In this document: in pieces, positions 6,001 through 42,393 of the stretch
Layout of the letters: the number at the start of each line of letters is the position of its first letter
Position numbering within the stretch: position 1 is the first letter of the stretch
NCBI GenBank assembly: GCA_000004985.1
Contig: GG738880.1
Length of the DNA stretch: 64,000 nt
Origin: Naegleria gruberi
Taxonomy: Eukaryota
Strand: one strand, 5' to 3'
Translations under genes and position numbers: made by a program
Notes under the pieces: model-generated
Databases searched by the model: none
Told to the model about the DNA's origin: nothing
What the model saw: the letters and a program-made list of their open reading frames with translations, nothing else

Positions 6001-9000
6001 NNNNNNNNNNNNNNNNNNNNNNNNNNNNNNNNNNNNNNNNNNNNNNNNNNNNNNNNNNNNNNNNNNNNNNNNNNNNNNNNNNNNNNNNNNNNNNNNNNNN
6101 NNNNNNNNNNNNNNNNNNNNNNNNNNNNNNNNNNNNNNNNNNNNNNNNNNNNNNNNNNNNNNNNNNNNNNNNNNNNNNNNNNNNNNNNNNNNNNNNNNNN
6201 NNNNNNNNNNNNNNNNNNNNNNNNNNNNNNNNNNNNNNNNNNNNNNNNNNNNNNNNNNNNNNNNNNNNNNNNNNNNNNNNNNNNNNNNNNNNNNNNNNNN
6301 NNNNNNNNNNNNNNNNNNNNNNNNNNNNNNNNNNNNNNNNNNNNNNNNNNNNNNNNNNNNNNNNNNNNNNNNNNNNNNNNNNNNNNNNNNNNNNNNNNNN
6401 NNNNNNNNNNNNNNNNNNNNNNNNNNNNNNNNNNNNNNNNNNNNNNNNNNNNNNNNNNNNNNNNNNNNNNNNNNNNNNNNNNNNNNNNNNNNNNNNNNNN
6501 NNNNNNNNNNNNNNNNNNNNNNNNNNNNNNNNNNNNNNNNNNNNNNNNNNNNNNNNNNNNNNNNNNNNNNNNNNNNNNNNNNNNNNNNNNNNNNNNNNNN
6601 NNNNNNNNNNNNNNNNNNNNNNNNNNNNNNNNNNNNNNNNNNNNNNNNNNNNNNNNNNNNNNNNNNNNNNNNNNNNNNNNNNNNNNNNNNNNNNNNNNNN
6701 NNNNNNNNNNNNNNNNNNNNNNNNNNNNNNNNNNNNNNNNNNNNNNNNNNNNNNNNNNNNNNNNNNNNNNNNNNNNNNNNNNNNNNNNNNNNNNNNNNNN
6801 NNNNNNNNNNNNNNNNNNNNNNNNNNNNNNNNNNNNNNNNNNNNNNNNNNNNNNNNNNNNNNNNNNNNNNNNNNNNNNNNNNNNNNNNNNNNNNNNNNNN
6901 NNNNNNNNNNNNNNNNNNNNNNNNNNNNNNNNNNNNNNNNNNNNNNNNNNNNNNNNNNNNNNNNNNNNNNNNNNNNNNNNNNNNNNNNNNNNNNNNNNNN
7001 NNNNNNNNNNNNNNNNNNNNNNNNNNNNNNNNNNNNNNNNNNNNNNNNNNNNNNNNNNNNNNNNNNNNNNNNNNNNNNNNNNNNNNNNNNNNNNNNNNNN
7101 NNNNNNNNNNNNNNNNNNNNNNNNNNNNNNNNNNNNNNNNNNNNNNNNNNNNNNNNNNNNNNNNNNNNNNNNNNNNNNNNNNNNNNNNNNNNNNNNNNNN
7201 NNNNNNNNNNNNNNNNNNNNNNNNNNNNNNNNNNNNNNNNNNNNNNNNNNNNNNNNNNNNNNNNNNNNNNNNNNNNNNNNNNNNNNNNNNNNNNNNNNNN
7301 NNNNNNNNNNNNNNNNNNNNNNNNNNNNNNNNNNNNNNNNNNNNNNNNNNNNNNNNNNNNNNNNNNNNNNNNNNNNNNNNNNNNNNNNNNNNNNNNNNNN
7401 NNNNNNNNNNNNNNNNNNNNNNNNNNNNNNNNNNNNNNNNNNNNNNNNNNNNNNNNNNNNNNNNNNNNNNNNNNNNNNNNNNNNNNNNNNNNNNNNNNNN
7501 NNNNNNNNNNNNNNNNNNNNNNNNNNNNNNNNNNNNNNNNNNNNNNNNNNNNNNNNNNNNNNNNNNNNNNNNNNNNNNNNNNNNNNNNNNNNNNNNNNNN
7601 NNNNNNNNNNNNNNNNNNNNNNNNNNNNNNNNNNNNNNNNNNNNNNNNNNNNNNNNNNNNNNNNNNNNNNNNNNNNNNNNNNNNNNNNNNNNNNNNNNNN
7701 NNNNNNNNNNNNNNNNNNNNNNNNNNNNNNNNNNNNNNNNNNNNNNNNNNNNNNNNNNNNNNNNNNNNNNNNNNNNNNNNNNNNNNNNNNNNNNNNNNNN
7801 NNNNNNNNNNNNNNNNNNNNNNNNNNNNNNNNNNNNNNNNNNNNNNNNNNNNNNNNNNNNNNNNNNNNNNNNNNNNNNNNNNNNNNNNNNNNNNNNNNNN
7901 NNNNNNNNNNNNNNNNNNNNNNNNNNNNNNNNNNNNNNNNNNNNNNNNNNNNNNNNNNNNNNNNNNNNNNNNNNNNNNNNNNNNNNNNNNNNNNNNNNNN
8001 NNNNNNNNNNNNNNNNNNNNNNNNNNNNNNNNNNNNNNNNNNNNNNNNNNNNNNNNNNNNNNNNNNNNNNNNNNNNNNNNNNNNNNNNNNNNNNNNNNNN
8101 NNNNNNNNNNNNNNNNNNNNNNNNNNNNNNNNNNNNNNNNNNNNNNNNNNNNNNNNNNNNNNNNNNNNNNNNNNNNNNNNNNNNNNNNNNNNNNNNNNNN
8201 NNNNNNNNNNNNNNNNNNNNNNNNNNNNNNNNNNNNNNNNNNNNNNNNNNNNNNNNNNNNNNNNNNNNNNNNNNNNNNNNNNNNNNNNNNNNNNNNNNNN
8301 NNNNNNNNNNNNNNNNNNNNNNNNNNNNNNNNNNNNNNNNNNNNNNNNNNNNNNNNNNNNNNNNNNNNNNNNNNNNNNNNNNNNNNNNNNNNNNNNNNNN
8401 NNNNNNNNNNNNNNNNNNNNNNNNNNNNNNNNNNNNNNNNNNNNNNNNNNNNNNNNNNNNNNNNNNNNNNNNNNNNNNNNNNNNNNNNNNNNNNNNNNNN
8501 NNNNNNNNNNNNNNNNNNNNNNNNNNNNNNNNNNNNNNNNNNNNNNNNNNNNNNNNNNNNNNNNNNNNNNNNNNNNNNNNNNNNNNNNNNNNNNNNNNNN
8601 NNNNNNNNNNNNNNNNNNNNNNNNNNNNNNNNNNNNNNNNNNNNNNNNNNNNNNNNNNNNNNNNNNNNNNNNNNNNNNNNNNNNNNNNNNNNNNNNNNNN
8701 NNNNNNNNNNNNNNNNNNNNNNNNNNNNNNNNNNNNNNNNNNNNNNNNNNNNNNNNNNNNNNNNNNNNNNNNNNNNNNNNNNNNNNNNNNNNNNNNNNNN
8801 NNNNNNNNNNNNNNNNNNNNNNNNNNNNNNNNNNNNNNNNNNNNNNNNNNNNNNNNNNNNNNNNNNNNNNNNNNNNNNNNNNNNNNNNNNNNNNNNNNNN
8901 NNNNNNNNNNNNNNNNNNNNNNNNNNNNNNNNNNNNNNNNNNNNNNNNNNNNNNNNNNNNNNNNNNNNNNNNNNNNNNNNNNNNNNNNNNNNNNNNNNNN

Positions 9001-12000
9001 NNNNNNNNNNNNNNNNNNNNNNNNNNNNNNNNNNNNNNNNNNNNNNNNNNNNNNNNNNNNNNNNNNNNNNNNNNNNNNNNNNNNNNNNNNNNNNNNNNNN
9101 NNNNNNNNNNNNNNNNNNNNNNNNNNNNNNNNNNNNNNNNNNNNNNNNNNNNNNNNNNNNNNNNNNNNNNNNNNNNNNNNNNNNNNNNNNNNNNNNNNNN
9201 NNNNNNNNNNNNNNNNNNNNNNNNNNNNNNNNNNNNNNNNNNNNNNNNNNNNNNNNNNNNNNNNNNNNNNNNNNNNNNNNNNNNNNNNNNNNNNNNNNNN
9301 NNNNNNNNNNNNNNNNNNNNNNNNNNNNNNNNNNNNNNNNNNNNNNNNNNNNNNNNNNNNNNNNNNNNNNNNNNNNNNNNNNNNNNNNNNNNNNNNNNNN
9401 NNNNNNNNNNNNNNNNNNNNNNNNNNNNNNNNNNNNNNNNNNNNNNNNNNNNNNNNNNNNNNNNNNNNNNNNNNNNNNNNNNNNNNNNNNNNNNNNNNNN
9501 NNNNNNNNNNNNNNNNNNNNNNNNNNNNNNNNNNNNNNNNNNNNNNNNNNNNNNNNNNNNNNNNNNNNNNNNNNNNNNNNNNNNNNNNNNNNNNNNNNNN
9601 NNNNNNNNNNNNNNNNNNNNNNNNNNNNNNNNNNNNNNNNNNNNNNNNNNNNNNNNNNNNNNNNNNNNNNNNNNNNNNNNNNNNNNNNNNNNNNNNNNNN
9701 NNNNNNNNNNNNNNNNNNNNNNNNNNNNNNNNNNNNNNNNNNNNNNNNNNNNNNNNNNNNNNNNNNNNNNNNNNNNNNNNNNNNNNNNNNNNNNNNNNNN
9801 NNNNNNNNNNNNNNNNNNNNNNNNNNNNNNNNNNNNNNNNNNNNNNNNNNNNNNNNNNNNNNNNNNNNNNNNNNNNNNNNNNNNNNNNNNNNNNNNNNNN
9901 NNNNNNNNNNNNNNNNNNNNNNNNNNNNNNNNNNNNNNNNNNNNNNNNNNNNNNNNNNNNNNNNNNNNNNNNNNNNNNNNNNNNNNNNNNNNNNNNNNNN
10001 NNNNNNNNNNNNNNNNNNNNNNNNNNNNNNNNNNNNNNNNNNNNNNNNNNNNNNNNNNNNNNNNNNNNNNNNNNNNNNNNNNNNNNNNNNNNNNNNNNNN
10101 NNNNNNNNNNNNNNNNNNNNNNNNNNNNNNNNNNNNNNNNNNNNNNNNNNNNNNNNNNNNNNNNNNNNNNNNNNNNNNNNNNNNNNNNNNNNNNNNNNNN
10201 NNNNNNNNNNNNNNNNNNNNNNNNNNNNNNNNNNNNNNNNNNNNNNNNNNNNNNNNNNNNNNNNNNNNNNNNNNNNNNNNNNNNNNNNNNNNNNNNNNNN
10301 NNNNNNNNNNNNNNNNNNNNNNNNNNNNNNNNNNNNNNNNNNNNNNNNNNNNNNNNNNNNNNNNNNNNNNNNNNNNNNNNNNNNNNNNNNNNNNNNNNNN
10401 NNNNNNNNNNNNNNNNNNNNNNNNNNNNNNNNNNNNNNNNNNNNNNNNNNNNNNNNNNNNNNNNNNNNNNNNNNNNNNNNNNNNNNNNNNNNNNNNNNNN
10501 NNNNNNNNNNNNNNNNNNNNNNNNNNNNNNNNNNNNNNNNNNNNNNNNNNNNNNNNNNNNNNNNNNNNNNNNNNNNNNNNNNNNNNNNNNNNNNNNNNNN
10601 NNNNNNNNNNNNNNNNNNNNNNNNNNNNNNNNNNNNNNNNNNNNNNNNNNNNNNNNNNNNNNNNNNNNNNNNNNNNNNNNNNNNNNNNNNNNNNNNNNNN
10701 NNNNNNNNNNNNNNNNNNNNNNNNNNNNNNNNNNNNNNNNNNNNNNNNNNNNNNNNNNNNNNNNNNNNNNNNNNNNNNNNNNNNNNNNNNNNNNNNNNNN
10801 NNNNNNNNNNNNNNNNNNNNNNNNNNNNNNNNNNNNNNNNNNNNNNNNNNNNNNNNNNNNNNNNNNNNNNNNNNNNNNNNNNNNNNNNNNNNNNNNNNNN
10901 NNNNNNNNNNNNNNNNNNNNNNNNNNNNNNNNNNNNNNNNNNNNNNNNNNNNNNNNNNNNNNNNNNNNNNNNNNNNNNNNNNNNNNNNNNNNNNNNNNNN
11001 NNNNNNNNNNNNNNNNNNNNNNNNNNNNNNNNNNNNNNNNNNNNNNNNNNNNNNNNNNNNNNNNNNNNNNNNNNNNNNNNNNNNNNNNNNNNNNNNNNNN
11101 NNNNNNNNNNNNNNNNNNNNNNNNNNNNNNNNNNNNNNNNNNNNNNNNNNNNNNNNNNNNNNNNNNNNNNNNNNNNNNNNNNNNNNNNNNNNNNNNNNNN
11201 NNNNNNNNNNNNNNNNNNNNNNNNNNNNNNNNNNNNNNNNNNNNNNNNNNNNNNNNNNNNNNNNNNNNNNNNNNNNNNNNNNNNNNNNNNNNNNNNNNNN
11301 NNNNNNNNNNNNNNNNNNNNNNNNNNNNNNNNNNNNNNNNNNNNNNNNNNNNNNNNNNNNNNNNNNNNNNNNNNNNNNNNNNNNNNNNNNNNNNNNNNNN
11401 NNNNNNNNNNNNNNNNNNNNNNNNNNNNNNNNNNNNNNNNNNNNNNNNNNNNNNNNNNNNNNNNNNNNNNNNNNNNNNNNNNNNNNNNNNNNNNNNNNNN
11501 NNNNNNNNNNNNNNNNNNNNNNNNNNNNNNNNNNNNNNNNNNNNNNNNNNNNNNNNNNNNNNNNNNNNNNNNNNNNNNNNNNNNNNNNNNNNNNNNNNNN
11601 NNNNNNNNNNNNNNNNNNNNNNNNNNNNNNNNNNNNNNNNNNNNNNNNNNNNNNNNNNNNNNNNNNNNNNNNNNNNNNNNNNNNNNNNNNNNNNNNNNNN
11701 NNNNNNNNNNNNNNNNNNNNNNNNNNNNNNNNNNNNNNNNNNNNNNNNNNNNNNNNNNNNNNNNNNNNNNNNNNNNNNNNNNNNNNNNNNNNNNNNNNNN
11801 NNNNNNNNNNNNNNNNNNNNNNNNNNNNNNNNNNNNNNNNNNNNNNNNNNNNNNNNNNNNNNNNNNNNNNNNNNNNNNNNNNNNNNNNNNNNNNNNNNNN
11901 NNNNNNNNNNNNNNNNNNNNNNNNNNNNNNNNNNNNNNNNNNNNNNNNNNNNNNNNNNNNNNNNNNNNNNNNNNNNNNNNNNNNNNNNNNNNNNNNNNNN

Positions 12001-12353
12001 NNNNNNNNNNNNNNNNNNNNNNNNNNNNNNNNNNNNNNNNNNNNNNNNNNNNNNNNNNNNNNNNNNNNNNNNNNNNNNNNNNNNNNNNNNNNNNNNNNNN
12101 NNNNNNNNNNNNNNNNNNNNNNNNNNNNNNNNNNNNNNNNNNNNNNNNNNNNNNNNNNNNNNNNNNNNNNNNNNNNNNNNNNNNNNNNNNNNNNNNNNNN
12201 NNNNNNNNNNNNNNNNNNNNNNNNNNNNNNNNNNNNNNNNNNNNNNNNNNNNNNNNNNNNNNNNNNNNNNNNNNNNNNNNNNNNNNNNNNNNNNNNNNNN
12301 NNNNNNNNNNNNNNNNNNNNNNNNNNNNNNNNNNNNNNNNNNNNNNNNNNNNN
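1..12353. other. Assembly gap (run of N); sequence unknown
   Basis: Bases 1-12353 are all 'n'. The first real base is at 12354 and lies inside a coding exon, so the adjacent gene is truncated by the gap. Confidence 0.99.
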
Positions 12354-14107
12354 AGTTAGCAAAACCAGTCTTAACAGCTTCAACGTCTGGTTGGGTAACA
12401 TTCTTCAATGCACATCCACCGTGGAATTTAAGAGCACGAATACTGGCAACAATGACAGCAACAGATGGCTTCAAACCAGAAATTCTGCACTTGATGTCAA
12501 AGAACTTTTCACCACCAATATCACCACCAAAACCAGCTTCAGTCAAAACAAAACCATCTTCACCAACAAGTCTCAAAGCAATATCATCAGCAATAATACC
12601 ATTTTGACCAGCAGCAATATTAGCAAATGGACCAGCATGAACAAAAACTGGAGTAGATTCAATAGTTTGCATCAAAGTTGGCTTAATGGTGTCCTTCATC
12701 AAGACAGCCATAGCACCAGCAACACCAACATCTTCAGCAGTAACTGCATTACCATCACGATCATAGGCAACAGTAATCTTACCAAATCTTTCTCTCATGT
12801 CTGTCAAATTCTTGGACAATGCCAAAACAGCCATACATTCAGAGGCAACAGCAATATCAAATTGAGTTTCTCTGGTTTGACCCTTTTCATTTGGACCTTG
12901 GCCAATAGTGATCTTTCTCAAATGTCTGTCGTTAATATCAACAACTCTGTTAATCTTAATAGTGGCTGGATCAATATTTAATCTGACGAGTTTTTCTCTT
13001 TCTTCTGGTGTTAATTTATCTGGATCTTCTCTTTCAGCAATACCTAATTTGGCCAATCTTTGGATCATGGATGGAACAAATTGTCTCTTTCCGTCCTTAC
13101 CAGCTGGACAAAGGTGATCAAAGAGTTGATCAGTCTTTTGATATGATTCATGGAAAACTCTAGTATCAACAGCAGCAGCCAACAAGTTATTGGCAGCAGC
13201 AATAGCGTGAATATCACCAGTCATGTGCAAATTGAATTCTTCCATAGGAACCTATTGTCAAATGATCATAAAATTTGAAAAAACAGTTCAATTATTGTGC
13301 ACTTACAATTTGTGAATAACCACCTCCAGCAGCACCACCCTTGATACCCTATAATTATTATTTGATTAATTATCATACTCCTCATTCAAAACTTACAAAA
13401 ACAGGTCCTTGTGATGGTTGTCTTAAACAAGAAACAACCTTTTTTCCGAGATGAGCACCCAAAGCTTGTGAGATACCCAAACAAGTTGTTGATTTACCTT
13501 CACCGAGAGGTGTTGGATTAATACCAGTAATCAAAACATAATTTCCCATTGGAGCATCTTGTCCTAAACGTTTAAGAATTTTCTTTCCATCAATCTTAGC
13601 CTTGTACTTTCCGTAAAATTCCAATTCTTCGTCAACATCAATGCCATAACGTGTGGCAATATCACCAATAAATTCAGGTTTACAATGTTGAGACACTTCA
13701 ATATCACTTGGGACAGGGACACGAATTTCACTCAATTTCTTACCAGTAATTGTTTCTTGTTGGGACATTTTTTTGTTGGTGTTGTTGTTGCAACCGGTTG
13801 AAGAACTGTAAGAGCGAAAAGAAGAGCCGGTTGAAGATGTTCTTGCTGATGATTCGCTACAATCAATAATATTAACATATTTGTGATGGGAAATTTGTTT
13901 GGCGCCAAAATTTAGGGAAGTATTCTTCTTCTTGTTGGTTGCAAGGCTTTTTGAGAAGCTTCTTCTTATCGATGATGATGAAGAGGTGGTTGAGCAAGTT
14001 GTTGATGATGCATTGTTCAATTGATGATTAGGAGTGTTACCGATGAGACGATCATGACACCAAAGTGATTGAATATTACACTTGGATTTTGTAATCTTAC
14101 GAAGCAT
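12354..14107 (-). CDS. Formate--tetrahydrofolate ligase (10-formyl-THF synthetase, monofunctional FTHFS). The 3' end is lost in the gap.
   Basis: Minus-strand exons: 13397..14107 (or start at the ATG at 13768), 13307..13348, and 12354..13251, which continues into the N run. Introns 13349..13396 (48 nt) and 13252..13306 (55 nt) are both GTAAGT...TAG. The spliced translation reads ...VPVPSDIEV...[17 protein letters not shown]...QGPVF|[14 protein letters not shown]|[17 protein letters not shown]...[29 protein letters not shown]. This carries the FTHFS P-loop [10 protein letters not shown] and other core motifs. The ORF-track N-terminal 113 aa (S-rich) looks like non-coding read-through or a targeting peptide. 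A second Met, [11 protein letters not shown] at 13768, aligns with FTHFS N-termini. Confidence 0.9.
13898..13910. promoter_or_regulatory. Palindromic E2F-like site TTTGGCGCCAAAA about 130 bp upstream of the second in-frame ATG of the FTHFS gene
   Basis: A GC-rich palindrome sits in otherwise AT-rich sequence and matches the E2F consensus TTTSGCGC on both strands. It lies within the poorly conserved 5' extension of the ORF, which may really be 5' leader. Confidence 0.35.
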
Positions 14108-19574: not shown

Positions 19575-19950
19575 TTAATTCTTTTGTCTTTGTTTAATAA
19601 CATCATTGTATTCCTTCTCCTGTGTCAGACGTGGATTTTCTGTTCCGGCAGGGATCTCACGTTTGAATAAAAGAATATGTTGTTCGCTTGATGAAGGAGA
19701 GTATCCATAATGAACCCATCCTCTGGACATTTGAATGCCCAAGCCTCGCCATTCCTTCTCAGCGAGAAGTCTCTCACAATTTTGAATACATTCTGCCAAC
19801 TTTTCTGGTAAAATTACATGTCTATATTCATATTCATCATCATAATACTATTAAATTTCCGTTGATAAATTAGTAATCAATAATTGTTGTTGTATAGTCA
19901 CTGAAACAACTAACCTTGTCAGAGTAGTAAATTTCGTCCTTGTTGCTCAT
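19575..19950 (-). CDS. cks1: Cyclin-dependent kinase regulatory subunit Cks1/Suc1, with an apparent 1-nt frameshift in the gene model
   Basis: Exon 1 (19915..19950) encodes [12 protein letters not shown]. Intron 19847..19914 (68 nt) has a GTTAGT donor and AATAG acceptor. Exon 2 (19575..19846) begins [15 protein letters not shown]. After a T3/A3 homopolymer near 19801-19803 the conserved continuation [32 protein letters not shown]...HILLFKR is in the +1 frame. Both pieces match Cks (YSDKYxDDxYEYRHVxLP and EWRxLGVQQSxGWxHY...HILLFRR). Confidence 0.8.
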
Positions 19951-19981
19951 TTTTTTTTAATTTGATTATTAATTAAAATTG

Positions 19982-20023
19982 GGCGCCAAAATTTTGACAA
20001 TTTAAATAATCATTTTTGGCGGT
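19982..20023. promoter_or_regulatory. Two E2F-like sites (TTTTGGCGCC at 19982..19995 on the gene strand; TTTTTGGCGG at 20014..20023) 30–75 bp upstream of the cks1 ATG
   Basis: GC-rich GGCGCC/GGCGG cores flanked by T-runs in an AT-rich spacer, matching the E2F consensus TTTSGCGC. cks1 is a canonical cell-cycle gene. Confidence 0.4.
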
Positions 20024-20271
20024 TCTAGCGTTGGAAGGAACATTGAATGTTTTAAATTACAAATCATAACGGTAACATGAAAGAAATTCCATCAATTAGA
20101 GAACTTAATGATGTGTAATATTCTTAACTTGTTGAACAATTGATTTTTAATCTTTCTTGTAAATTAAAATCGAAATAAAATTGAATAGAATGAAATGGCA
20201 GCTTTTTTCATTAATTTTAAATAGAATGAATTTATTTGCACCAAATATCAAAAAACCTTTTTTAAATTAAT

Positions 20272-21225
20272 TTACTTCTTTTCAGCAGCTGGAGCTTCAT
20301 CCAATTCTCTGCAGTATGGCTTTGGAAGATCACCATCTTGGAAAAGGAGAGTCTTTTGTCCACCAAGTGGTTCAGCATATCTACGTCCATTTTGAGAACC
20401 AATTTGTTTTGGATATTCACCCTTCTTCAACATTTCAATAATTTCAATAGCACGAACAGCTGTCAAATCTTCGAAATAATCATATTTAAATTCTGGAGGG
20501 TTAGAGTAATCGGAAACAGCAATCATTGGAGCATTAGCACAACAACCCATACATTCCATTTCTCCTAAAGTGAACAAACCATCTTGAGTAGTTTCACCCA
20601 ATTTAATTCCTAAATGTTGTTCAAGAGTAGCCAAAATATTATCACATCCAGTTATCATACATGGAGTAGTAATACAGACTTGAATGTGGTACTTTCCGAC
20701 AGGTTGAGTATTGAACATAGTATAGAAGGAAACACATTCAAAAACATTTCTTGGATTAACTTCACAGATTTCAGCAATCTTGTTAATAGCAGCCAATGGA
20801 ATCCATCCACCATTTTGACGTTGAGCCAAGTGGAGCAAAGGTAAGATACCAGATTGTTTGTGTTTACTTGGATATTTAGCAAGAATTTTCTTGATTTCAG
20901 CATATGATTCTGGTGAGAAATCAAAAGGAGTGTTAACATTATTGTATTCAGTATCAACATGCTGTAATAATAATAACATTCAATTATAATTGTAGTAATC
21001 ATTTAAAATTAATAACAACAAGAATAATTTCAATAATAATAAAATCCGTGATGAAAAAATTCATATGAAGATAACAACAAGAATAAAATCCACACATTTT
21101 CAATAAAACTTGATTCCATCATCACTACATACCTTGTATTGCAAGAATGAAGAGCGGGTTGTAGAGAAACATCTCTTATTGTTGAGGACGACTCTTCTGA
21201 GAAGGTTGTTGGTATTTCTAAGCAT
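20272..21225 (-). CDS. NADH dehydrogenase [ubiquinone] flavoprotein 2 (complex I 24-kDa subunit, NDUFV2)
   Basis: Exon 1 (21133..21225) encodes MLRNTNNLLRRVVLNNKRCFSTTRSSFLQYK, a mitochondrial presequence. Intron 20962..21132 (171 nt) is GTATGT..TTACAG. Exon 2 (20272..20961) encodes HVDTEYNNVNTPFDFSPESYAEIKKILAKYP...GKYHIQVCITTPCMITGCDNILATLEQHLGIKLGETTQDGLFTLGEMECMGCCANAPMIAV.... This is collinear with NDUFV2 including the 2Fe-2S Cys ligands. Confidence 0.9.
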
Positions 21226-21450
21226 TTTTATCTTGTTGGTAAAATTTTTACAAGCCTTTGTTTGTTCTTGTCGTTGTCTAGTCAAATATACAAATGAAGG
21301 CTTGAACCAATGCTCCAAATACATCCAAATTTAATTGGAGTGCAATGAGCTGTTGCTGGTGATCCAAGATCATTTAATAATTAAATAATTGATTTTATGT
21401 ATTGAAAATGTAAATTACCTGCTGTGTAAACAATTGGCCAAATAACAAAC

Positions 21451-22818
21451 ATGATTTTATTAGATTTAAAAATGTCTTCACCACAATTGGGCCAATCATC
21501 GGGTGTTGCTGTTGCTTCTCCCACAACATTGCAATCTCCCCGATTTCTACAACAGCAATCAATGATTACCTCTCCTAAACCTACTCTATTTGATTGGATC
21601 AAGGAACATTTATTGTTCATGAATAATTCAACTCCGTACAAGATTAATATTTCAAATATGGGTAAAAGTAATAGGAAACAACTTAATTTTGATAGATTTC
21701 AATTGGAAATACCTGTATTTTGTATAGGGGAGTGCAGTTTGTCAATTCATTTGTTTTATGATGGATCAAGACCTCATTCTCCTTTTGATTTTCAAATAAT
21801 TTCGGATTTGTCATCATCTTATCTGCAGAATTTCATGATTGACTCATCAAAATTGCAGAGTATGATTGAATGGAGAGATTTGTATATTAGATATTTGCAA
21901 CATCATGATGTTTCTAAAGAACTTTGTACATTTACATTTAGAACTATTAGTGAAATAATAGAATTTTTAACAGAATACTACAAGCTTGTAATTTCAAAAC
22001 ATAAGAATGATAATATTAGATTCGAATTTGATACTACTCAAAGTATTGGAGGAGCTAATTTTTATATTAAGGAATTATATTCAAATGATGGAACAGAATG
22101 CTCAACTGAGAAGATTTACTTTCTAGTTCCACTTTCAATTTCAGGCTTAGAAAAAATTGAGGAATATCAAAGATTATTCGATGTAAATACTATTCAATTA
22201 CCTGATTCCAAACCAAAACTACTTGTCGTCTACTCCTATGATAAGTCAAGAGATGTAATTGTTAATGTAAATACAGAAATTATCTATCCAACCAGTGTAA
22301 AGAACAGTAAGAGATTACAATGGTTGACACAAATTCCAATTCCATCATGGAATCAAGGTAAATCATGTATAATTGAATATATGTTAGAAGCTGTGGAAAA
22401 TATTGAATCTGAGGTTGAAAAGTACACTCAAAAACTCAAAGCTCGTCTAGAGTTTATCAAACAATTACTTGCTGCCTTTGGCAATCCTACAGACTTTTCT
22501 GAGAATGAATCTCTTACTAAGATTTCATTTCTAATGGAACGAGACAAGTTTCAATTCTTCCTTCACATTACACTTGAAAGAGAGGGTTTCCCAATTGTGC
22601 AACCAGTGATTAGAATGCAATCAACTCAATACTTTAAATCCTCGGATAGAGTTAAAGATAAATTATTGCCTGTTCGTGTTCGAGTACAACAATTGAACTG
22701 GACAGAAGGAGGGAGTGCTGAAGTGATGACAAAGAACGTTGAACAAATCCGTATTCAAGTTCTGGCCTTGTTGGGCGAATTTATCAAAGTTTGCCAATCG
22801 GAAGGAACAAGCCAATAA
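21451..22818 (+). CDS. BRISC/BRCA1-A complex member 2 (BABAM2/BRE/BRCC45)-like protein
   Basis: 455-aa ORF. The C-terminal region FLHITLEREGFPIVQPVIRMQSTQYF...W...MTK aligns with the BABAM2 UEV-like C-terminus ([26 protein letters not shown]...W...MAK). The N-terminal half shows weaker collinear similarity (FDFQIISDL...LQNF). There is no RING, so FANCL is excluded. Confidence 0.45.
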   Translation: MILLDLKMSSPQLGQSSGVAVASPTTLQSPRFLQQQSMITSPKPTLFDWIKEHLLFMNNSTPYKINISNMGKSNRKQLNFDRFQLEIPVFCIGECSLSIHLFYDGSRPHSPFDFQIISDLSSSYLQNFMIDSSKLQSMIEWRDLYIRYLQHHDVSKELCTFTFRTISEIIEFLTEYYKLVISKHKNDNIRFEFDTTQSIGGANFYIKELYSNDGTECSTEKIYFLVPLSISGLEKIEEYQRLFDVNTIQLPDSKPKLLVVYSYDKSRDVIVNVNTEIIYPTSVKNSKRLQWLTQIPIPSWNQGKSCIIEYMLEAVENIESEVEKYTQKLKARLEFIKQLLAAFGNPTDFSENESLTKISFLMERDKFQFFLHITLEREGFPIVQPVIRMQSTQYFKSSDRVKDKLLPVRVRVQQLNWTEGGSAEVMTKNVEQIRIQVLALLGEFIKVCQSEGTSQ

Positions 22819-22923
22819 ATAGTTTACTTTATTACTTTTCCAACAAGACAATAACCAATAATTAAAAATAAATAAGAATTGAATTTTATATTTTGAATTT
22901 TTAAATATATACCGGTAATTAGT

Positions 22924-23367
<444 letters not shown>

Positions 23368-23904
23368 TCAACAAACATTTTACAATAAAATATTTCTCTC
23401 TCATCCACAAGCTAAAAACCTGAACCAAATAAAATAGTAATATTTTGATTAATAATGAATATTTCATGAACGAAATTGAAGTCAATTTAATCTTTGAATG
23501 ATAATTCAGAATGAACGTGTGTTTGTTTCTTGAAAGTCTATACAACGTCCCTTTAAATCATTCTCTAAATTTTAAAGAAGAAACTTGAGGACTCCTTCAT
23601 TTCTGTAATTAAAAGAAAGAATTTCAATTTCCAAATTAAAAGAACACAACAGAATAAATTGATGATTCCATCATACAAATTGGTGTTCTATTAAATAATA
23701 GAATTAATATTCATTGAACATATTAATTTTAGGCTTTCCTTCCCGCCATACAGAATGCAAAATTCAAAAAAATTGCTCCACATTTTTGTTCGTCATCATC
23801 ACGACCCGATTTTTGGAATAATTACTCATCAATTCACTGCACGAGTTTTATAAATCGGATTATTCCTGCTACAACATAGTTAATAGTAGAGTTGATTTAT
23901 CGGA

Positions 23905-25551
23905 ATGTTTGATTTTTTAAAAAGATTTCTTCCAACAAGCCTTGGTGGAAACGTCACGCAAGAACCTATCAACAAGAGAAAGAGAGAGGATATGGCTGCA
24001 GACCAACATGATGAATTTGCTAATAATAATAATAACAATACAAAGAAAACAAAGCCAAACATACCAGAAATGCCAATAACGACAACAACATCAGAAAACA
24101 ACAAATTACCAAATACTACTCAACAAGTTAAGGATAGTAAAAAGGAAGAATCGAGTGAACTAGCAATATTCTTGAAAAAACAACAAGAAACGGAAAACCA
24201 AATAATACCTATACGATCCCATAAGAAGAAGAATGTGAAAAAAGCAAAATCTAAATTAATTTCCGAAAAACCAATACTAACAGATGAAGTAATTGTTTTG
24301 GATGATGACGAAGATGATTTGAAACATGCTTACAAAAAGTTAGATGGAAATCTTGTGAATGAAAAGTATATTCAAAACCACAGTGAGGCTATTCATACTA
24401 AGCTTAACACTCAACAAAAGGTCAATTCCGAAATCAAAGTTCCACATATGCCAGTGGGAGGAATGGTTACAGAAAAGAAGAATGAAAAGAAAGTAGAATC
24501 GGTACCTATTCGTGTACAACCAAAACCACCTATAATTATTTCTAGAAAGCTTTTCAACAATAAGGATAAGGGTCCAACACTCTTTAGAGGAGATCAAGTT
24601 GATAGATTAACATCAAAGTTGGATTCAATTTTATCATTGAAGGAAAAATCAGAGGAAACTAGAATCACTAGATCTTTCATTGAAAAGGAGGCCATAAATA
24701 GAGCATCATCTAAGATTATTTCAATACTTTGTAAAGAGCTTTTGGGAGAGGAAGCAAAAAAACTTCATGCTGATTCACTACCACAAGCAGTGTATAACAA
24801 ATTAGTTTCTGAAATTATTACAGAGACTGTTGCTAAGGAAAAAGAGACTTTCCCACTATCAGAAAGAGACAGGAATTTTGTGGCACAAATTTTCCGAGAT
24901 GCACACAAAAAACCTCAAGAAGTTCTTGTACTTAAATTCAATATTGACATTACTAGAGCTAAAATTCAATGTCTTAATGGACTTGAATGGCTAAATGATG
25001 AAGTAATCAACTTTTATCTCAACATGGTCAAAGAAAGAAGTGAAAAGAATCCAGACAAGTATCCTAAAATCCATGTTTTCAACACATTTTTCTATGCCAA
25101 GTTGACTGGTGAACATAATAACACTTATAATTATAGTGCTGTGAGAAGGTGGACCAAGAAAATTGATCTTTTAGAATATGATAAGATTATTATTCCTATC
25201 CACTTGTCAGTTCACTGGACTCTTGCAATAATTAATTTGAGAGATAGCAAATTTGAATTTTTTGATTCAATGAATGGTCATAGAACAGGTATGAAGGTAT
25301 TACAAAATTTGGAAAAATACTTAGTTGACGAGATTAAAGACAAGAAGGGTGTTACATACGAAACGTCTTCTTGGGAGAAGAGTATGCCACCAGTTCCTCA
25401 ACAAGCAAATGGATCAGATTGTGGAGTTTTCACTTGTAAATTTGCCAATTATGCTGCCCAAGATTTGCCATTTTCCTTTTCACAAAAACACATGCGTTAT
25501 TTTAGAGATAGAATGGTTTTGGAGATTGTTAGAGCTAAAGAATTACTATAA
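23905..25551 (+). CDS. SUMO-specific protease (Ulp1/SENP family, peptidase C48)
   Basis: 548-aa ORF with an N-terminal K/N-rich region. The C-terminal catalytic domain reads LEWLNDEVINFYLNMV...IHVFNTFFYAKL...IIIPIHLSVHWTLAI...FDSMNG...QQANGSDCGVFTCKFANYAA, carrying the conserved His, Asp and Cys triad context of Ulp1. Confidence 0.8.
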   Translation: MFDFLKRFLPTSLGGNVTQEPINKRKREDMAADQHDEFANNNNNNTKKTKPNIPEMPITTTTSENNKLPNTTQQVKDSKKEESSELAIFLKKQQETENQIIPIRSHKKKNVKKAKSKLISEKPILTDEVIVLDDDEDDLKHAYKKLDGNLVNEKYIQNHSEAIHTKLNTQQKVNSEIKVPHMPVGGMVTEKKNEKKVESVPIRVQPKPPIIISRKLFNNKDKGPTLFRGDQVDRLTSKLDSILSLKEKSEETRITRSFIEKEAINRASSKIISILCKELLGEEAKKLHADSLPQAVYNKLVSEIITETVAKEKETFPLSERDRNFVAQIFRDAHKKPQEVLVLKFNIDITRAKIQCLNGLEWLNDEVINFYLNMVKERSEKNPDKYPKIHVFNTFFYAKLTGEHNNTYNYSAVRRWTKKIDLLEYDKIIIPIHLSVHWTLAIINLRDSKFEFFDSMNGHRTGMKVLQNLEKYLVDEIKDKKGVTYETSSWEKSMPPVPQQANGSDCGVFTCKFANYAAQDLPFSFSQKHMRYFRDRMVLEIVRAKELL

Positions 25552-25556
25552 ATTAT

Positions 25557-28500
25557 TTATTTTGAAAACAATTTGGCCTGTGAGAGTAGTTCTGTACTTA
25601 ATTGAATGATATTGTTGCACTTTAATCCACAAGTTTCAAAATTGATAATGTCAGACGTATCTTGCTTTAAAGAGTTAGCTAAAAGAACCCATCCGCTCAA
25701 TCTCTTATAAAACAAGTCTACAACAGATTCATCCAAGCGTAGTATTGGAGTTGGGGCTTCTTTTGCTTGCTCTCCATCTTTTGGCTTAATATTCGTAAGA
25801 ATGGAGGCTGAGGATACTGTTTCCTCAGATGCTAATCTTCTTTTTGTGAGCTGTCTTTCTAATTTGAAATTTCGTTTCAAAAGCTCAAATAGATATCTGT
25901 CTGCTTTTAAGGTTTCATTGATATTGGAGGGTTTCTCATTTCTCATAGAATTGTCTTCCAAGAAAACTACTTTCTTTTTAGAGCTTGTTGGATAGTTCAA
26001 ATAACAACCTGTTTTGATTATTTTTCTAGATAGGCTCATCACTACTTGAATGTTAAACGGTGTAAGGAGAATATTCAAACATTTCTCAAATTCACTTTCG
26101 AATAATGAGAGCAAATTTAAATTGTGTAATAAATTTTGCAAATCTAAATCCAATCTGAAAGGAGAGCAATAATCTTTACGAGTGGCATGCACAAAAGCAC
26201 ATGCCATATTATCAAACAAAACTCTTCCTTTTTCCATATCAAATATAATAGAATCATCCCTAACATTGCCCAATCCAATAAACCAACTAATAGCAGACCA
26301 TTTAGCAAGGTCTCTAACAACCCTTTCACACATGTCGTACCAGGAATTTTTGTAAATGTGATATTTCGTTATTAAGACAGTGTTTTTCTTCTTGGTTTCC
26401 ACATCATAGGACATGAGTGAATAGTGTTGGGATGCGTGCTGAGAAAAATATTGGAATAATACAGTTTCTGGCTTTTTGAGAGAAAAATTGAGTGATTTCA
26501 AAGACTGTAAATCCACAAATGAAGAGTTTGATTGTTTTCTAATTACTTTGAAATAATTTCCTCCCATCTTCATAATTGGTATCATTTCCAACTGTTCCAT
26601 CCCAATAAAATTCCCAATTGCATTCGAGGTTAACATTTCCAAATTTGAGGCATCCATGGTTGGAATGGGAGAAAGTGTAATGGCGAGACTTTCTTTTGAG
26701 GTTTCCTGATCAAAATCTCTATCAATTTGAATTCGCATCTCCCACAAATTATTGTTATTTTCATATGAAAATTTGGAAATTTCGATCGAGTTAACAAATT
26801 GCATCCATTTAAAACCAGTATCCTTTGCTGTTGATTTTCCAATATATTTAAACAGTTCCAATAATGAATTAAAGAATTCTTCTTTGTTAACTGAGGATTC
26901 CAAATTATTATGTAGCACATTATTGATCACTGATAAGGAAGCTTGAATCATTTTAAATTTGTGGTCATCACAATATTCCATAAATTTTCTGAACATTTCC
27001 AAGTTGCAAAATCTAAGAAAGTCCAAAACAAAGTTAATATTTTCCAGAGATGAATACTTTTGAATCGATTTGTAAGAGTTCTTAAAGAGAAATAATGATA
27101 CTAATCGGTTCAATTCTTCTCCATTGAATGTCTCAATAATGAAGGAGAAAATTTTAGCCCATCCCGTACAGAATGTAACACTTTCAAGCATGTCTTTGTC
27201 AATAAATCTGTATTCTATAAGATATGACAGTATATTGATGCAATGTTTTAGCTCTGTTACTGTCATTGAATTCTTACAATCTATTAATTTTGAAATATTC
27301 TCCAAAAAATCAAATATTAATAAATGTACACAATAGAAAACCGATGGCTTTTGTGTTTCTAAATCTGGTTGATAAGTAAATGATCCAAAATTGGAAGGGC
27401 ATAGGTTAGTGCATGTTTGGGAGAGAATTTCTTCCATTGTGAAATTTCTATTTGAATACTTATTGTTGGAAACTACAGATGAGAATAGGATGATTACAGA
27501 TTCTAGTGTTATAGTTCTTAAACAAAAGGAAATATTTTCAGGTAGTTCTATTTTAGAAGAGAGTAGCGCATAACCTATTCTCCAATCTAGCATTCCATTG
27601 TCTTGTGAAATCTTCCTAAGACCAAAGGTATCCTCATTTTTGATTGGATTATCTGTATTGGTAATGAATTCAACAAACTCTTTCCAATCTACCTTTTTTG
27701 ATTTTCGTATTGTAGTCTTTGATTGAAGTAAGAGCTGCTTTCTGACAAAATCGAATACTTTTGTGGAATCTCTTTCAAGAGAAGCATAGCAATCAGATAA
27801 CATTGAACAAAAAAGATTCAAAAACTCTCCACATGTTTTGAGTTCGATTTTGTTCAATCTGAATTTCAAAGATTCATCCTTAATTGACCATTCATGTAGA
27901 ATGAAATTTAAATTAATGGATATATCTTCAATATTACTAGTTTGTTCACAAATGATTTGAATTCTTTCATGAATAACAGCATCACTCGAAGTATCATTAA
28001 ATATATAGAAAATACATTTCCAAAATAGAGAATTTTTCTTTCCATGTATAAATTTAGAATCAAATTCTTCACTTATTACTATTTGTATAGGTTCCTCTGT
28101 TGTTTGTTTGTTTGTTTCTAGATTCATTTCTTCAACTGTTTCTACAAGTGGCTCTGTATTTCTATCAATAAAATCTTGGGCTAAGTCTAATAAACTATGG
28201 CGATTCAAATACCATTCAGAAGAATCCACAGTATGAATTGAAGAGTCAGATTGTGAAAGTTTCATAATATGAAGAAGGATAAGATGTGACTCAACAACAG
28301 GCTCCTTATATCTACTTGTAATTGATTCTACTGTTTTAACATAATCAATGATGGTATTTGTAGACAAATTCTCAATAGAACTAAAAATGTTTCTACTAGA
28401 ATTATTGGATTCGGGGTTCATTCCCTGCAATATATCAAAGAAGGGAGTCTTTTGATCTCTCCTACTCAGTTCGTATTGAATCCATTGTAAACAGGTGGAA

Positions 28501-31500
28501 GAGATCTTATCTTTGAGTACCAACTCTATTACTTTGATTTTTTCTGTTGTTAAAAGCTTGTTCTCAGTAAGCATCTTCTTGATAATATTCTCATAGGTGG
28601 TGGTGTTAATTTGTCGAGCAAAGTTGGCCAAATCTGATACAGTGTTCATTTCTTTCGAGTTGAGGAATGAAACATCTCCTTTCTTTAGAGTTTCCACTAG
28701 TTGGTAGTTGATTTTTTGTTCAGAATTCATTGAGTCAGAGTACGACTTGAGGAATAACTCGAAATTCTTCTTTTTCTCATCCTCTCTTATAGATCTATCC
28801 AATAGATTCTTTGCAAACAAGTAGGGAATAACATCAGGATACTCATTGGAAATTTTCTGAATGAAACTATCATTGGAATTAGTTAAAGATATGTATGATC
28901 CCAATATTTCACAAATATTTTCCTTATACAACCCTTTCAAATAATTCAAATAGGGCCAAAGATTATTAAAACCCATCTTGAACTCCTCAATCAATGAGGA
29001 ATATTCAATATTTGCATTGGATCTATTAAACTTGTTTAGAGTAACTCTTAATTTGAATAAATCAAACTCTGATAGCAGCTGTCTGGTCTCAATCGATTTG
29101 GCTTGCATTTTGATAATACTCAAATCTAGTTTCGATAAATATGATTCAAGATTATCGTTTAGGCCTATAAGAAAAGCAATTTTACATAGAGGATATAGCG
29201 TGTCAATTCTTGCAAATCTTGTAGAACCCATATTATTAGAAATTATCAGTGCTTGCTTTTTCATATTATTGGTGAGTAAATAAATTATTATCCATTGCCA
29301 ACAAGAAGTTTGAAACTTGGGATCAATTTCTTTAAGTGCTTGTTGTGCCTTTTCATAGAATTGAGTTTGATAGTATTGACTAGAGGGTGATCGTAAACTG
29401 AACTTCAATTCAAATATGATTGTCTTTGGTTTTTTCATGTAATCAGCACTTATACTGTGAATTGGATTCAGTGTTGAGAAGTAGCTCTCATTTGAAATGT
29501 AAGATATGTTTGCCTTAAGAAAGTGAATTGAAGATTTGTAGTTTTCCAAATTGAATATTTGGGCATGTTCAATCATGTTTGTTTTAAGCCAGTCTGGAAT
29601 ATTCTCAACAATTTTCTCAAGCTTTTCAAGCTCAGTTCTTGATTTTTCTATATCAAAATGATTGACATAGTATTTGGTTCCTAGTTTTAGTTTTTTGAGT
29701 TGAAATTCAATTGTGATTGGATTGAAATCTCTGTATACACTCGAAAAATTAGAGTCATCCAAAATATAGAATGTCTTTAACCGTAGATAGACGTATTCGT
29801 AATTCTTTGGGCTAGATCTTTGTAGATTTGATAATATTTGAAGAGCTTGCCTTGAAGATATGGTACTCTTCTTTTTGTAAAGAATTTTGGCTTGCAATAA
29901 CTGAAACTCTGGCGAAAGTTCACTAATATTTGAAACCTTAGGTATGTATTGTGATGCATTATTATAATCTTCAATGTTGTAATGATAAAGTGCTTTTTCA
30001 AAATCCACAGCAGATAAATTTCCACTTCCTTTATATCAAAAATTAATTAATTCGATAGATGAACTACACTTACTTGTTGCTTCGACCAAGCTTGTTTCAA
30101 TATATTTCCTAAGTTTTGAATTTGTTTTCAATGCACATTTCCCCATTCTATTGTAAGCATAAACTTGCATATAGTACGAAGAGTCATCCCTTTTAGTGAC
30201 CTCATCAAAAATCCACTTTGAATAGTCTAATAATTTCCAAGGACTTCCAGCACTTGCCAATGATATATAGTACCAGAAAAAAGTTGAGGAATCTTTACCT
30301 CCTGGCTTTTTGCCAATCATTACATGTCTGTCATAGAATAACTGCATCAAGATGAGTGATGTTTTGGCACATCCAAGTTTTGTTAAGTAGAACCACAATA
30401 GACGTAATGTTTGTGGATATTGAGAGCAAATGCTTTGGATTGTATAGTTATTGTAAATATCTTGAGTAAAGATAATTGGATCAATATTGAAAGAAGTTAA
30501 CAAGTATGAAAGAGCTCCCTCTATATCACCATTATAGTACTTCAATAGAGAAACATTATTACAAGCAGATTTTTCAATTTCAACAGATCTAAAACCAAGT
30601 GGTAATTGATTAAATCCAAACTGAAGTTTGGTACTATTTAGAAATCGTTCAAAAATAGTCGAGTTTGCATTGAATTGATTGGAATCGTCCTGAGATAAAA
30701 GCGAATCCAATAAGTTTTTCTTATATTCCAAACTTGCTAAACAATCACTCCCTGAAAATAATTCCAAAGCTTTTGTAATTACATTTTGTGCCAACTCATA
30801 ATTCCCTGTTTCCCAATAAATATCCACAATATTTTCAATTGATATTATTTGATATGGTGCTAATTCTAATCCCTTCATAAAAAATTCAATAGATTGCTTA
30901 TATAAACATCTATCTTTAAAAATAATTCCAAATAAATGATAAATTGATGGATTATTTGGATCTCTCTGTTTCATTTCATCCAAAATATGTATTGCCTCTG
31001 AATCCCAGCCCATATTATGTTTGATTAGTGCCAATGTTAATAAATAGGCAGTGTTATTTGGTTCACACTTTTTTGCTTTATAGCAACATTGAATGGCCTC
31101 TTCGTATTCCTCATGAATCATGTAAATTTCAGATAATGCTATCCAAGCATCAAAACTCGAATCTGTTTGTTTAATTATATTCAAGAAATATCCCTCAGCC
31201 CTATCTATATCATTTAATATCCTCAAATATCTTATTCCATTGTTTTTTATATTGAATTTCTCAATAAAAATACTTACAAATATCCTAAATTCAATAGTGG
31301 ATTAATTATTAAATGTTCATTTCTAATTTGTTGACTTTTTTGAAGGGAATATGTAAATGATTCGATGGATTTTTCAATTTCACCTCTATGTAATTGTAAG
31401 ACTCCAATATTATTAGTTACAAGAATATCCTCTTTTAGTAGTTCCTTTTTTCTCCCTATTAATTCTTTTGATTTTGCAAAACTGTCAAACGAAGATTGTA

Positions 31501-31708: not shown

Positions 31709-33087
31709 TTAATATCCTGAAAGCTTTGAAGAGGACATCTTCTTTCCAGTTTTGCGTGGATCACCATTACGTTCAATTTCAGCACATTCATGAGTGATTG
31801 GATTATACTGAACAAATCTCTTATTAGGACTAGGTGTTGAAAGACCATTCTGTGAATAAAAAGATTGAGCAGTTGTTGTGTAAAAGTTTTGAGGATTTGA
31901 AGAGTAGAAGCTCTGAGATGATGGACTTCTGAATGGCTGTGGTTGATTGTTATATGATGAAGGACTCCTGTACATTTGAGGAGGAGGAGAGGTATATTGT
32001 GGAGATGCATACACATTTTGAGATGAAGGACTTCTGTACTGAACAGGTGATTGATTATTCGTAGTTCTATATTGCACTGCTTGATTATTTTGTGGACTCT
32101 TATTAGCGCTTTGGATTGGGTATTGGCTATAGTTTGTTTGAGGTGGATGTTGACTATAGTTGTTTTGTGGGCTCGAATAATTTTGAGGACTGGAATAATT
32201 ATTTTGTGGACTATATCCAGTTTGAGGGGAATAATCATTCTGAGTGTAACTTGGTGGTGATGGTTCTGGTTGATTTAGTGTTCTACTATCAATAGTACTC
32301 ATCATAATTGGAGTGATTGCAGTTAGGTCACTATCATTTCTCTTTAGTGGAGGTCTTTGAGATGGAACCTCATTAGAGGATGAAATAGTAGGATTTGGAA
32401 CCAATAAGGGAGCCCCACTAACAAAATACTGCTTAAATACAACAAAATTATTGCTTTGAGGAATATAGTCAGAGAGTCCGTAGTGTCTTCTAAGGAAACC
32501 AATAAGCTTTGGAGATGGTCTGTCGTAGGCAAATCTTTCAGGAGATGTTTTCTCAAAAGCTAGCATTGCTTCAAAGAGTATTTTACCAATACCTTTCCTT
32601 TGCACTGCTTCACTAACGTAAAAATCCAAAACACAAAGTGGTTCAATTTCCTTGAAATCTCCAGTCATACTCTGATAATAATTACTAAATAGTGTAGCGA
32701 CGCAATACTTACTCTATAGAATAGCTTTTTTCTTCCTACTTTTAAAATTCCAAATGCCTTATTATCTACACTATAAAGATAGAGATTATTATCATTAAAT
32801 TGAATTTTTGATGATGTTGTTATTGCTGTAGGAAGAACTTGGGCCTAAAAATCATCACATAATAATAAATATCAATTAGTGTTGCCAATAAAACTAACCT
32901 TTGCCGATGCATCACCCATTCTATCAATAACAGAGCAAATTACATTGTAATATTCCGCCTTTTTAGATTTAAGCAATGTAAGGGTTGTTTTGTTCCACAA
33001 TGAAATACAAGGATCATCTATATTGTTGTTGGGATTCAAAGTAAACGCCTTTGAGATACGTTGGATGTTGTGATGACCAAAATCCAT
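31709..33087 (-). CDS. Alpha-tubulin N-acetyltransferase (ATAT1 / MEC-17) with a long Y/S/P/Q-rich C-terminal tail
   Basis: Exons 32899..33087 (MDFGHH...[15 protein letters not shown]), 32713..32844 ([44 protein letters not shown]) and 31709..32671 ([83 protein letters not shown]...). Introns: 32845..32898 (GTTAGT..TTTTAG) and 32672..32712 (GTAAGT..TCAG), both phase 0. The catalytic core aligns near-identically with human ATAT1 ([22 protein letters not shown]...AIDRPSQKLLKFLNKHYNL...QVNNFVIFEGFF). Residues ~100–300 of exon 3 are degenerate YSPQNN/SPSSQ repeats. Confidence 0.9.
31830..32290 (-). repeat. Degenerate tandem Y/S/P/Q/N-rich coding repeats (prion-like low-complexity tail of ATAT1)
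   Basis: The translation reads [39 protein letters not shown]...[55 protein letters not shown]. The DNA shows recurring ggactat/ggagtat/tgaggact motifs. Confidence 0.7.
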
Positions 33088-33116
33088 CTTGATGCTTGTT
33101 TTTAATACAATATGAA

Positions 33117-33166
33117 GTTGCGCCTTTTTTTAGACGAGAAAGTACAATTTTCTGTTGGCGCGCTTT
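33117..33166. promoter_or_regulatory. GC-rich promoter motifs upstream of ATAT1 (GCGCCTTTTTTT at 33120..33131; palindromic TTGGCGCGCTTT at 33155..33166, E2F-like)
   Basis: These are rare GC cores in an AT-rich spacer 30–80 bp upstream of the ATAT1 ATG (33087, minus strand). The second is a palindromic E2F-type TTGGCGCGC. The first resembles the GGCGCCCTTTTTT element at 42362. Confidence 0.3.
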
Positions 33167-33603
33167 CAAGTACATTTACACCAATTAGGTTGTTGAGGGT
33201 GGACAAAGTTGCCATTAATGGATGCCTTATGTGTTCATATCACCACAAACTGAAGTGGAATTTAATTTTAAAATCACCTCAACACCTGAAACAATACTAG
33301 GTATTTTTTACTTCCTTATTAAGCAAAATAACATGCAGCAACCACAATGTTATTGTTTAAAAAACAGACTCTCTGGTGGTTAGATCCTAAATGGAATTAT
33401 TGGCCATATGTGAAAATAATTCAAATTGGAATTATAAATTCAACAGCAATATTTGAAACTTTAAGTTTCTTGCTCATATTGCAACCTGAAGTTTCCATTT
33501 GTTTCCACCTTCTTTGGCTTTATCAATATCTCCAAATGAATTAAAGCAATCAATATATTTGTTTTCATCACAAACGAAATACATTCTTAAATATAATTCA
33601 AAA

Positions 33604-38840: not shown

Positions 38841-38936
38841 AAGCAATATTTTCTAATGAAAGCATTAAACAAGGCCATTATTAAATTTTCCTAAATTTCC
38901 CGCCTTGGAGAATCGTTACATAATTTTTTAAAAAAA

Positions 38937-42361: not shown

Positions 42362-42393
42362 GGCGCCCTTTTTTGAAATTAATGTGGCGCTCG
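42362..42393. promoter_or_regulatory. GC-rich motif GGCGCCCTTTTTT (42362..42374) plus GTGGCGCTCG in the divergent promoter between 41302..42330(-) and 42511..43998(+)
   Basis: Rare GC cores in a 180-bp AT-rich bidirectional spacer. The motif is similar to GCGCCTTTTTTT at 33120. Confidence 0.25.

Follow-up and report, generated by a model that had tools for sequence, protein, structure and literature searches.

The locus considered here raises the question of whether the scarce GC-rich elements of an AT-rich Naegleria gruberi sequence are E2F-type regulatory sites and, if so, which genes they serve. The window, by which we mean the whole 64-kb stretch of DNA that was analyzed, comprises 51.6 kb of actual sequence after an initial run of N (positions 1-12353, either a contig end or padding), with about 32% GC, a high density of genes and short introns. 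A preliminary description had drawn attention to GC motifs upstream of cks1, FTHFS and ATAT1 and had suggested that they reflect a G1/S regulon under an E2F/DP-like factor. All four of the motifs that it listed are present and rare, and their counts exceed the expectation from shuffling. GGCGCC was observed three times against 0.25 expected, a count of at least three being reached in none of 100 dinucleotide-preserving shuffles; the consensus TTTSSCGC was found four times against 0.81 expected (0/100 shuffles reaching 4), and TTGGCGS five times against 1.41 expected (1/100 reaching 5). A full listing of SSCGS-type CpG cores gave just ~13 clusters across the 51.6 kb, and those inside coding exons lie in exon 1 of NDUFV2 and exon 1 of ATAT1. 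The exact TTTSSCGC matches are the proximal site of cks1 (19983-19990, minus strand), the FTHFS palindrome, which matches on both strands, and a site at 38896-38903; the distal sites of cks1 and ATAT1 and a site at 42383 carry one mismatch, while the proximal site of ATAT1 and a site at 42362 retain the core only.

Two GC elements upstream of cks1

The cks1 gene consists of two exons separated by a 67-nt intron, starts at an ATG at 19950 and encodes a product of 102 aa that matches PF01111 (CKS) and is 87% identical to Cks1 from an environmental Naegleria contig, 75% to that of N. fowleri and 61% to that of Willaertia magna. Since the gene lies on the minus strand, both GC sites are 5′ of it, and our measurements bore out the claim that they lie within 75 bp of its ATG: in gene sense, the upstream region reads ...CCGCCAAAAA (-72 to -63) ...TTTTGGCGCCC (-41 to -31) ...AAAAAAAAATG. 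The proximal site is near-palindromic, its plus strand reading TTGGGCGC at 19979-19986. The coordinates given previously for the FTHFS and ATAT1 motifs (13898-13910 and 33155-33166) were exact, while those of the cks1 pair were slightly off: the distal site had been placed at 20014..20023, one base from where it lies, and the proximal site, reported as TTTTGGCGCC at 19982..19995, had been given the wrong strand and length, the plus strand reading GGGCGCCAAAA at 19981-19991. The positions of these and the other features are collected in Table 1.

Table 1. GC elements and associated features of the window. Distances are in nucleotides from the ATG of the gene named.
Feature	Position	Strand	Sequence	Distance from ATG	Core (distance from ATG)	Remarks
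FTHFS palindrome	13898..13910	.	TTTGGCGCCAAAA			Perfect palindrome, double exact E2F consensus; inside in-frame ORF from ATG 14107
cks1	19575..19950	-				Exon 1 19915-19950, intron 19848-19914, exon 2 19575-19847 including stop
cks1 ATG to NDUFV2 stop, intergenic	19951..20271	.				Contains cks1 promoter
cks1 proximal E2F-type site	19981..19991	-	TTTTGGCGCCC in gene sense	-31..-41	GGCGCC (-32..-37)	Exact TTTSSCGC match
cks1 distal site	20013..20022	+	TTTTTGGCGG (CCGCCAAAAA in gene sense)	-63..-72	second element (-68..-72)	Inverted relative to cks1; one mismatch
Site upstream of Ulp1/C48	23739..23747	+	CTTCCCGCC	~160 nt upstream of ATG 23905		Doubtful member
ATAT1 (ATG 33087, -), proximal core	33120..33124	-	AAAAAAAGGCGCAAC in gene sense	-33..-37	GGCGC (-33..-37)	No T-run
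ATAT1 distal GC element	33155..33166	+	TTGGCGCGCTTT	-68..-79	second element (-70..-76)	One mismatch
365-aa tail-anchored coiled-coil gene (ATG 38937)	38896..38904	+	TTTCCCGCC	-41..-33	CCCGCC (-33..-38)	Exact consensus; no second element
342-aa S-rich coiled-coil gene (41302-42330, -; ATG 42330)	42362..42367	.	GGCGCC	-32..-37	GGCGCC (-32..-37)	Core only
342-aa gene, second element	42383..42390	+	TGTGGCGC	-53..-60	second element (-56..-60)	One mismatch

Conservation of the cks1 elements in Heterolobosea

We compared the region with the cks1 loci of N. fowleri (L001), Willaertia magna (L002), Acrasis kona (L003) and an environmental Naegleria (L004), and an E2F-like site was found in all four relatives 25-55 nt before the cks1 ATG. 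N. fowleri carries TTCCCCGC, with its core at -25..-31, and TTTCGCGT farther up, each with one mismatch; Willaertia has an exact TTTCCCGC, with a CCCGCC core at -24..-29; Acrasis has TTGGCGCCC at -45..-50 and the environmental Naegleria CCGCCAAA at -33..-37. When up to one mismatch to TTTSSCGC was allowed, provided that the CG was intact, a site within 100 nt upstream of the ATG was present in 5/5 cks1 genes compared to 6/54 other annotated genes, drawn as controls from heterolobosean loci totalling ~106 kb (Fisher p = 9.2e-5). Dinucleotide shuffling of each cks1 upstream region gave a joint P of ~7e-5, which is conservative because the shuffles retain CpGs. A weaker CG-containing element lies ~25 nt above the proximal site in N. 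fowleri (TTTCGCGT) and in Acrasis, where its sequence, TTTTCGCC, falls outside the limit of one mismatch. The non-coding DNA flanking the sites, judged by eye and unaligned, bears no obvious likeness across the five species, suggesting that the cks1 sites are independent retentions. With their match to the consensus, their rarity and their recurrence at an equivalent promoter-proximal position in all five heteroloboseans, the description of the cks1 sites as E2F-type appears well founded, and they are likely to be real, conserved cis-elements.

That rare GC words should have landed close to start codons by accident, the genome being AT-rich, is an explanation invited by the shortness of the motifs, the small size of the window and the relaxed one-mismatch definition, which matches 11% of control promoters. 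Against it stand the observed counts, reached in 0/100 shuffles, the difference between cks1 orthologues and controls (p = 9e-5), and the fact that four cores in the window fall within a single 7-nt register, as described below; chance throughout is therefore scarcely credible.

The gene order Ulp1/C48 - UbL40 (ubiquitin-L40) - BRE - NDUFV2 - cks1 is common to the window (20272-25551) and to Willaertia magna (L002 36-5401), while the neighbours of N. fowleri cks1 differ from both. No GC core was found upstream of the syntenic neighbours NDUFV2, BRE, C48 and UbL40 in Willaertia, indicating that the site upstream of Ulp1 in the window is not conserved. This site is a doubtful member of the set because it is far from its ATG and because the 200 nt upstream of the Willaertia C48 ATG contain no GC core. 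The control loci yielded further exact promoter-proximal sites, at Willaertia MGMT and at an N. lovaniensis cNMP-binding gene, so that it seems to serve a minority of the genes in these genomes. The MGMT site, TTTGCCGC, lies at -39..-46 (L006 15210-15217) in a divergent promoter common with a BTB/WWE gene, and the N. lovaniensis site, TTTGGCGCC, at -41..-48 (L008 15127-15134).

E2F, DP and Rb proteins

The preliminary description had named the absence of E2F and DP genes as grounds for rejecting its proposal, and such genes were found both for the genus and for its relatives. E2F, DP, an E2F7/8-like DEL and RB of N. gruberi (NgruE2F, NgruDP, NgruDEL and NgruRB) are among the supplementary sequences of Medina et al. 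2016 (PMC4862756). Our database searches recovered E2F orthologues from N. fowleri, N. lovaniensis, Willaertia and Acrasis, and DP orthologues from N. gruberi, N. fowleri, N. lovaniensis and Acrasis. In the E2F4-DP2-DNA structure, the CGCG/GCGC core is read by RRXYD motifs. Alignment to this DNA complex (1CF7) showed no difference between the E2F and DP recognition helices of Naegleria, RRIYDITNVLEG and RRRVYDALNVLMA, and the human ones of E2F4 and DP2, and given that these motifs read the core, an unchanged specificity is the natural expectation.

These observations, together with the conservation of the sites, lead us to favour the reading that the two cks1 GC elements, 31-72 nt upstream of the ATG, are promoter-proximal E2F-DP sites, to which we assign a probability of roughly 0.6 on the evidence of sequence. 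The Naegleria E2F-DP heterodimer would bind both elements, which might also be bound by the DEL/E2F7-like protein, and this would make cks1 subject to Rb-E2F control, as it is in animals, plants and Dictyostelium, with E2F-DP binding predicted to give cell-cycle-phased cks1 transcription. The E2F promoter code of animals and plants would then probably operate in this remote branch of the eukaryotes too. For such control Dictyostelium offers a precedent: its cks1 belongs to the genes that RblA represses and is de-repressed on loss of the Rb orthologue (PMC3386910).

Several observations weigh against this reading. The motif was absent within 250 nt of the E2F genes of N. lovaniensis, Willaertia and Acrasis and of the DP gene of N. 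lovaniensis; autoregulation is no defining feature of these factors, yet such motif-free promoters lend no support. The degenerate members of the set, such as the mismatched N. fowleri sites and those with A-runs, would also fit another GC-box factor. The canonical S-phase genes (MCM, PCNA, RNR, CDC6 and the DNA polymerases) are found neither in the window nor in the ~106 kb of related loci. Separately, the annotated CDS of the Willaertia E2F gene includes, 46 nt from its start, an exact TTTGGCGC (L006 10046-10053) that encodes F-G-A; this may be a coding occurrence, or else the start codon may have been annotated wrongly.

The FTHFS palindrome

The palindrome upstream of FTHFS lies, as had been reported, about 130 bp above the conserved Met of the enzyme (130-142 nt from the ATG at 13768). 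It had also been proposed that the S-rich N-terminal extension of this ORF is in fact a leader or promoter, and three lines of evidence speak against this. The extension (13769-14107) comprises 113 in-frame codons and is the sole open frame, which shuffling would produce with a chance of 3.5e-4. Its codon log-likelihood of +0.13 per codon is the best of the three frames (-0.005 and -0.54 for the others), yet low beside the 0.2-0.36 of confirmed coding sequence, intergenic controls scoring -0.03 to -0.5. Finally, the 740-aa FTHFS of N. fowleri has a similar S/T-rich, basic extension of ~100 aa that starts with MLKR and ends with KKM before the domain; the extension in the window starts with MLRK, giving the shared pattern ML[KR][KR]. 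The extension is thus probably translated and resembles a mitochondrial presequence, and the palindrome, which encodes F-G-A-K in frame with the ATG at 14107, most likely lies within translated sequence. The most that the palindrome might provide is an internal promoter for a short FTHFS isoform.

This bears on a narrower account of the window, according to which the palindrome is mere coding sequence in a presequence-like extension, the other matches outside cks1 are weak or due to chance, and a real element exists solely at cks1. To this we give even odds. The open frame with its codon score and the equivalent extension in N. fowleri favour it, as does the exact TTTGGCGC inside the annotated Willaertia E2F CDS, which indicates that coding occurrences of the consensus do happen and which encodes the same F-G-A peptide as the FTHFS palindrome; the lack of the Ulp1 site in Willaertia points in the same direction. 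On the other hand, this perfect 12-nt double consensus accounts for one of the three GGCGCC words in 51.6 kb, of which an estimated ~35 kb is coding. The internal Met of FTHFS (ATG 13768) also keeps the A-rich AAAAAAATG start context found at most genes here, and its equivalent in the protein, KKM, is conserved in N. fowleri; both are compatible with a shorter isoform made from an internal promoter. The narrower account also leaves unexplained by chance a placement of the core that cks1 has in common with three other genes of the window.

A constant position of the core in four genes

This placement is new with respect to the preliminary description: a GC core lies at a nearly constant -32..-38 in four genes of the window. 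An SSCGS core of any kind occurs in the 100 nt before just four of ~27 putative starts, and in each of these cases one core falls at -32..-38 (Table 1). The four starts belong to cks1, ATAT1, the 365-aa gene starting at 38937 and the 342-aa gene at 41302-42330, whose sites together lie 31-79 nt 5′ of the ATG. The TTTCCCGCC site occupies a 96-bp intergenic gap, and the 42362 site is located in a 181-bp divergent promoter that the 342-aa gene has in common with a Sel1-repeat gene (ATG 42512). Neither of the two coiled-coil proteins has Pfam or PDB relatives or belongs to a recognisable family. The recurrence of the core at -32..-38 in three genes besides cks1 makes it probable that the element is the mark of a small group of genes whose promoter layout is constrained in position. 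Such constancy hints at uniform, very short 5′ leaders and could aid the annotation of promoters and transcription start sites.

The gene model of ATAT1 is sound, and the GC element reported upstream of it is present; its proximal core had escaped the preliminary description. Its status as a G1/S gene is doubtful, given that its sites are one-mismatch or core-only and that alphaTAT of N. gruberi is upregulated solely as cells differentiate into flagellates, with no such rise in mitosis (bioRxiv 10.1101/2024.01.08.573270). Differentiation-only expression makes it a poor fit to a proliferation regulon. Among the carriers, then, cks1 fits proliferation, ATAT1 is differentiation-specific, two are coiled-coil genes of no known family and the FTHFS site is probably coding, so a wider G1/S regulon that includes FTHFS and ATAT1 is not established. 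No orthologous ATAT1 DNA was found in two metagenome scans. As a separate matter, the N. fowleri ATAT1 model (P0122) has 143 more residues at its N terminus, ahead of MDFGNYNIQRI; the counterpart of this peptide in the window (33087-33200) is preceded by stop codons, so that the model for N. fowleri may have been extended too far or fused.

The fixed position also raises the possibility of a lineage-specific, position-constrained box, formed by a W-run and GGCGCC or CCCGCC ~35 nt before the ATG, that serves a non-E2F factor or sets the core promoter and transcription start, its likeness to E2F sites being coincidental. A core hexamer held at -32..-38 in 4/4 carriers is indeed tighter than is usual for an activator site; in two of the four (ATAT1 and the gene at 41302-42330) an A-run replaces the T-run that E2F favours; and the carriers, with a differentiation-specific gene among them, form no textbook S-phase set. 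The cks1 element, however, varies exactly within the degeneracy of E2F sites (GGCGCC, CCCGCC, CCCCGCG, GGCGG, with a T-run) and in either orientation, and its distance to the cks1 ATG ranges elsewhere from -24 to -50. Moreover, E2F-DP is present with unchanged recognition helices, and the box is carried by just ~10-15% of genes, which argues that it is no general core element. We therefore consider a non-E2F box unlikely, and retain E2F-DP binding as the preferred reading of the cks1 elements.

A bolder extension of the E2F reading would have a position-fixed E2F-type GC box drive cks1, the ciliary ATAT1/alphaTAT and the two coiled-coil genes alike. E2F is tied to centriole and cilium biogenesis in animal multiciliated cells, where E2F4/5 act with multicilin. 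If the extension were true, this link would be ancestral to eukaryotes and not an animal invention; we regard it as highly unlikely.

Relation to known regulatory systems

The cks1 elements are probably of a known type, the Rb-E2F site, and their unexpected feature is the constant placement at -32..-38. They match the consensus TTTSSCGC known for E2F/DP sites in animals, plants and Dictyostelium, and the agreement extends to its high-affinity palindromic form TTTGGCGCCAAA. E2F sites in promoters are typically paired, in either orientation and near the gene start, and the cks1 pair is likewise of mixed orientation and close to the start of the gene. As in other Rb-E2F systems, Naegleria has E2F, DP, an E2F7/8-like DEL and Rb. 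Three differences can be noted: the candidate sites belong to Heterolobosea (Discoba) and are read from sequence, in contrast to E2F targets elsewhere; the core in this genome keeps to -32..-38 from the ATG, unlike that of known E2F sites; and the carriers, unlike known E2F target sets, include the differentiation-specific ATAT1 and no demonstrated S-phase gene.

Two other systems resemble the cks1 arrangement. Mammalian G2/M genes of the CKS1B/CKS2 type are controlled by tandem CDE/CHR elements, as targets of DREAM/MuvB, and the GC-rich core near the start of cks1 (GGCGG/GGCGCC) is CDE-like. The elements here, in contrast, carry the T-run typical of E2F sites and not of the CDE, and no CHR (TTYGAA) four nucleotides after the core is conserved in the five cks1 promoters, which rules out a CDE/CHR reading. 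In fungi, an analogous G1/S role is played by SBF and MBF, which use the sites SCB (CRCGAAA) and MCB (ACGCGT), and the distal element of N. fowleri, TTTTCGCG (= CGCGAAAA), is also SCB-like. Naegleria instead has E2F, DP and Rb, and the SBF and Whi5 regulators are confined to fungi according to Medina et al. (PMC4862756).

A literature search returned no earlier description of E2F cis-elements in Heterolobosea. The view that the Rb-E2F module goes back to the last eukaryotic common ancestor relies mostly on the presence of its proteins. A conserved cks1 element that obeys the consensus would carry its cis-regulatory side into Discoba as well, a group that includes the pathogen N. fowleri and whose promoters are, to our knowledge, almost wholly unstudied.

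Additional observations on the window

No RNA families or tRNAs were found in the window, and local repeats around the region are merely AT-rich chance pairs. A 19-nt direct repeat, TAAAATTGAATAGAATGAA / TAATTTTAAATAGAATGAA, with copies 36 nt apart, lies between NDUFV2 and cks1, immediately 3′ of the stop codon of NDUFV2 (20176-20230), and may also be due to chance in AT-rich DNA. An ORF of 1483 aa at 25557-30008 (minus strand), with no Pfam match, adjoins a TPR-repeat ORF (30036-31226), and the two may form one large gene. NDUFV2 has a short 5′ exon at ~21134-21225 (minus strand), which starts at an ATG at 21225 with the presequence-like MLRNTNNLLRR... and is followed by a GTATGT intron, indicating that the start given in the ORF list, an ATG at 20979, is a false one; the GCGGG at 21154 belongs to the coding sequence of NDUFV2. 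Finally, an A-run (AAAAAAATG) precedes most start codons in the window as well as in N. fowleri, Willaertia and N. lovaniensis, and provides a cue for choosing among candidate starts.
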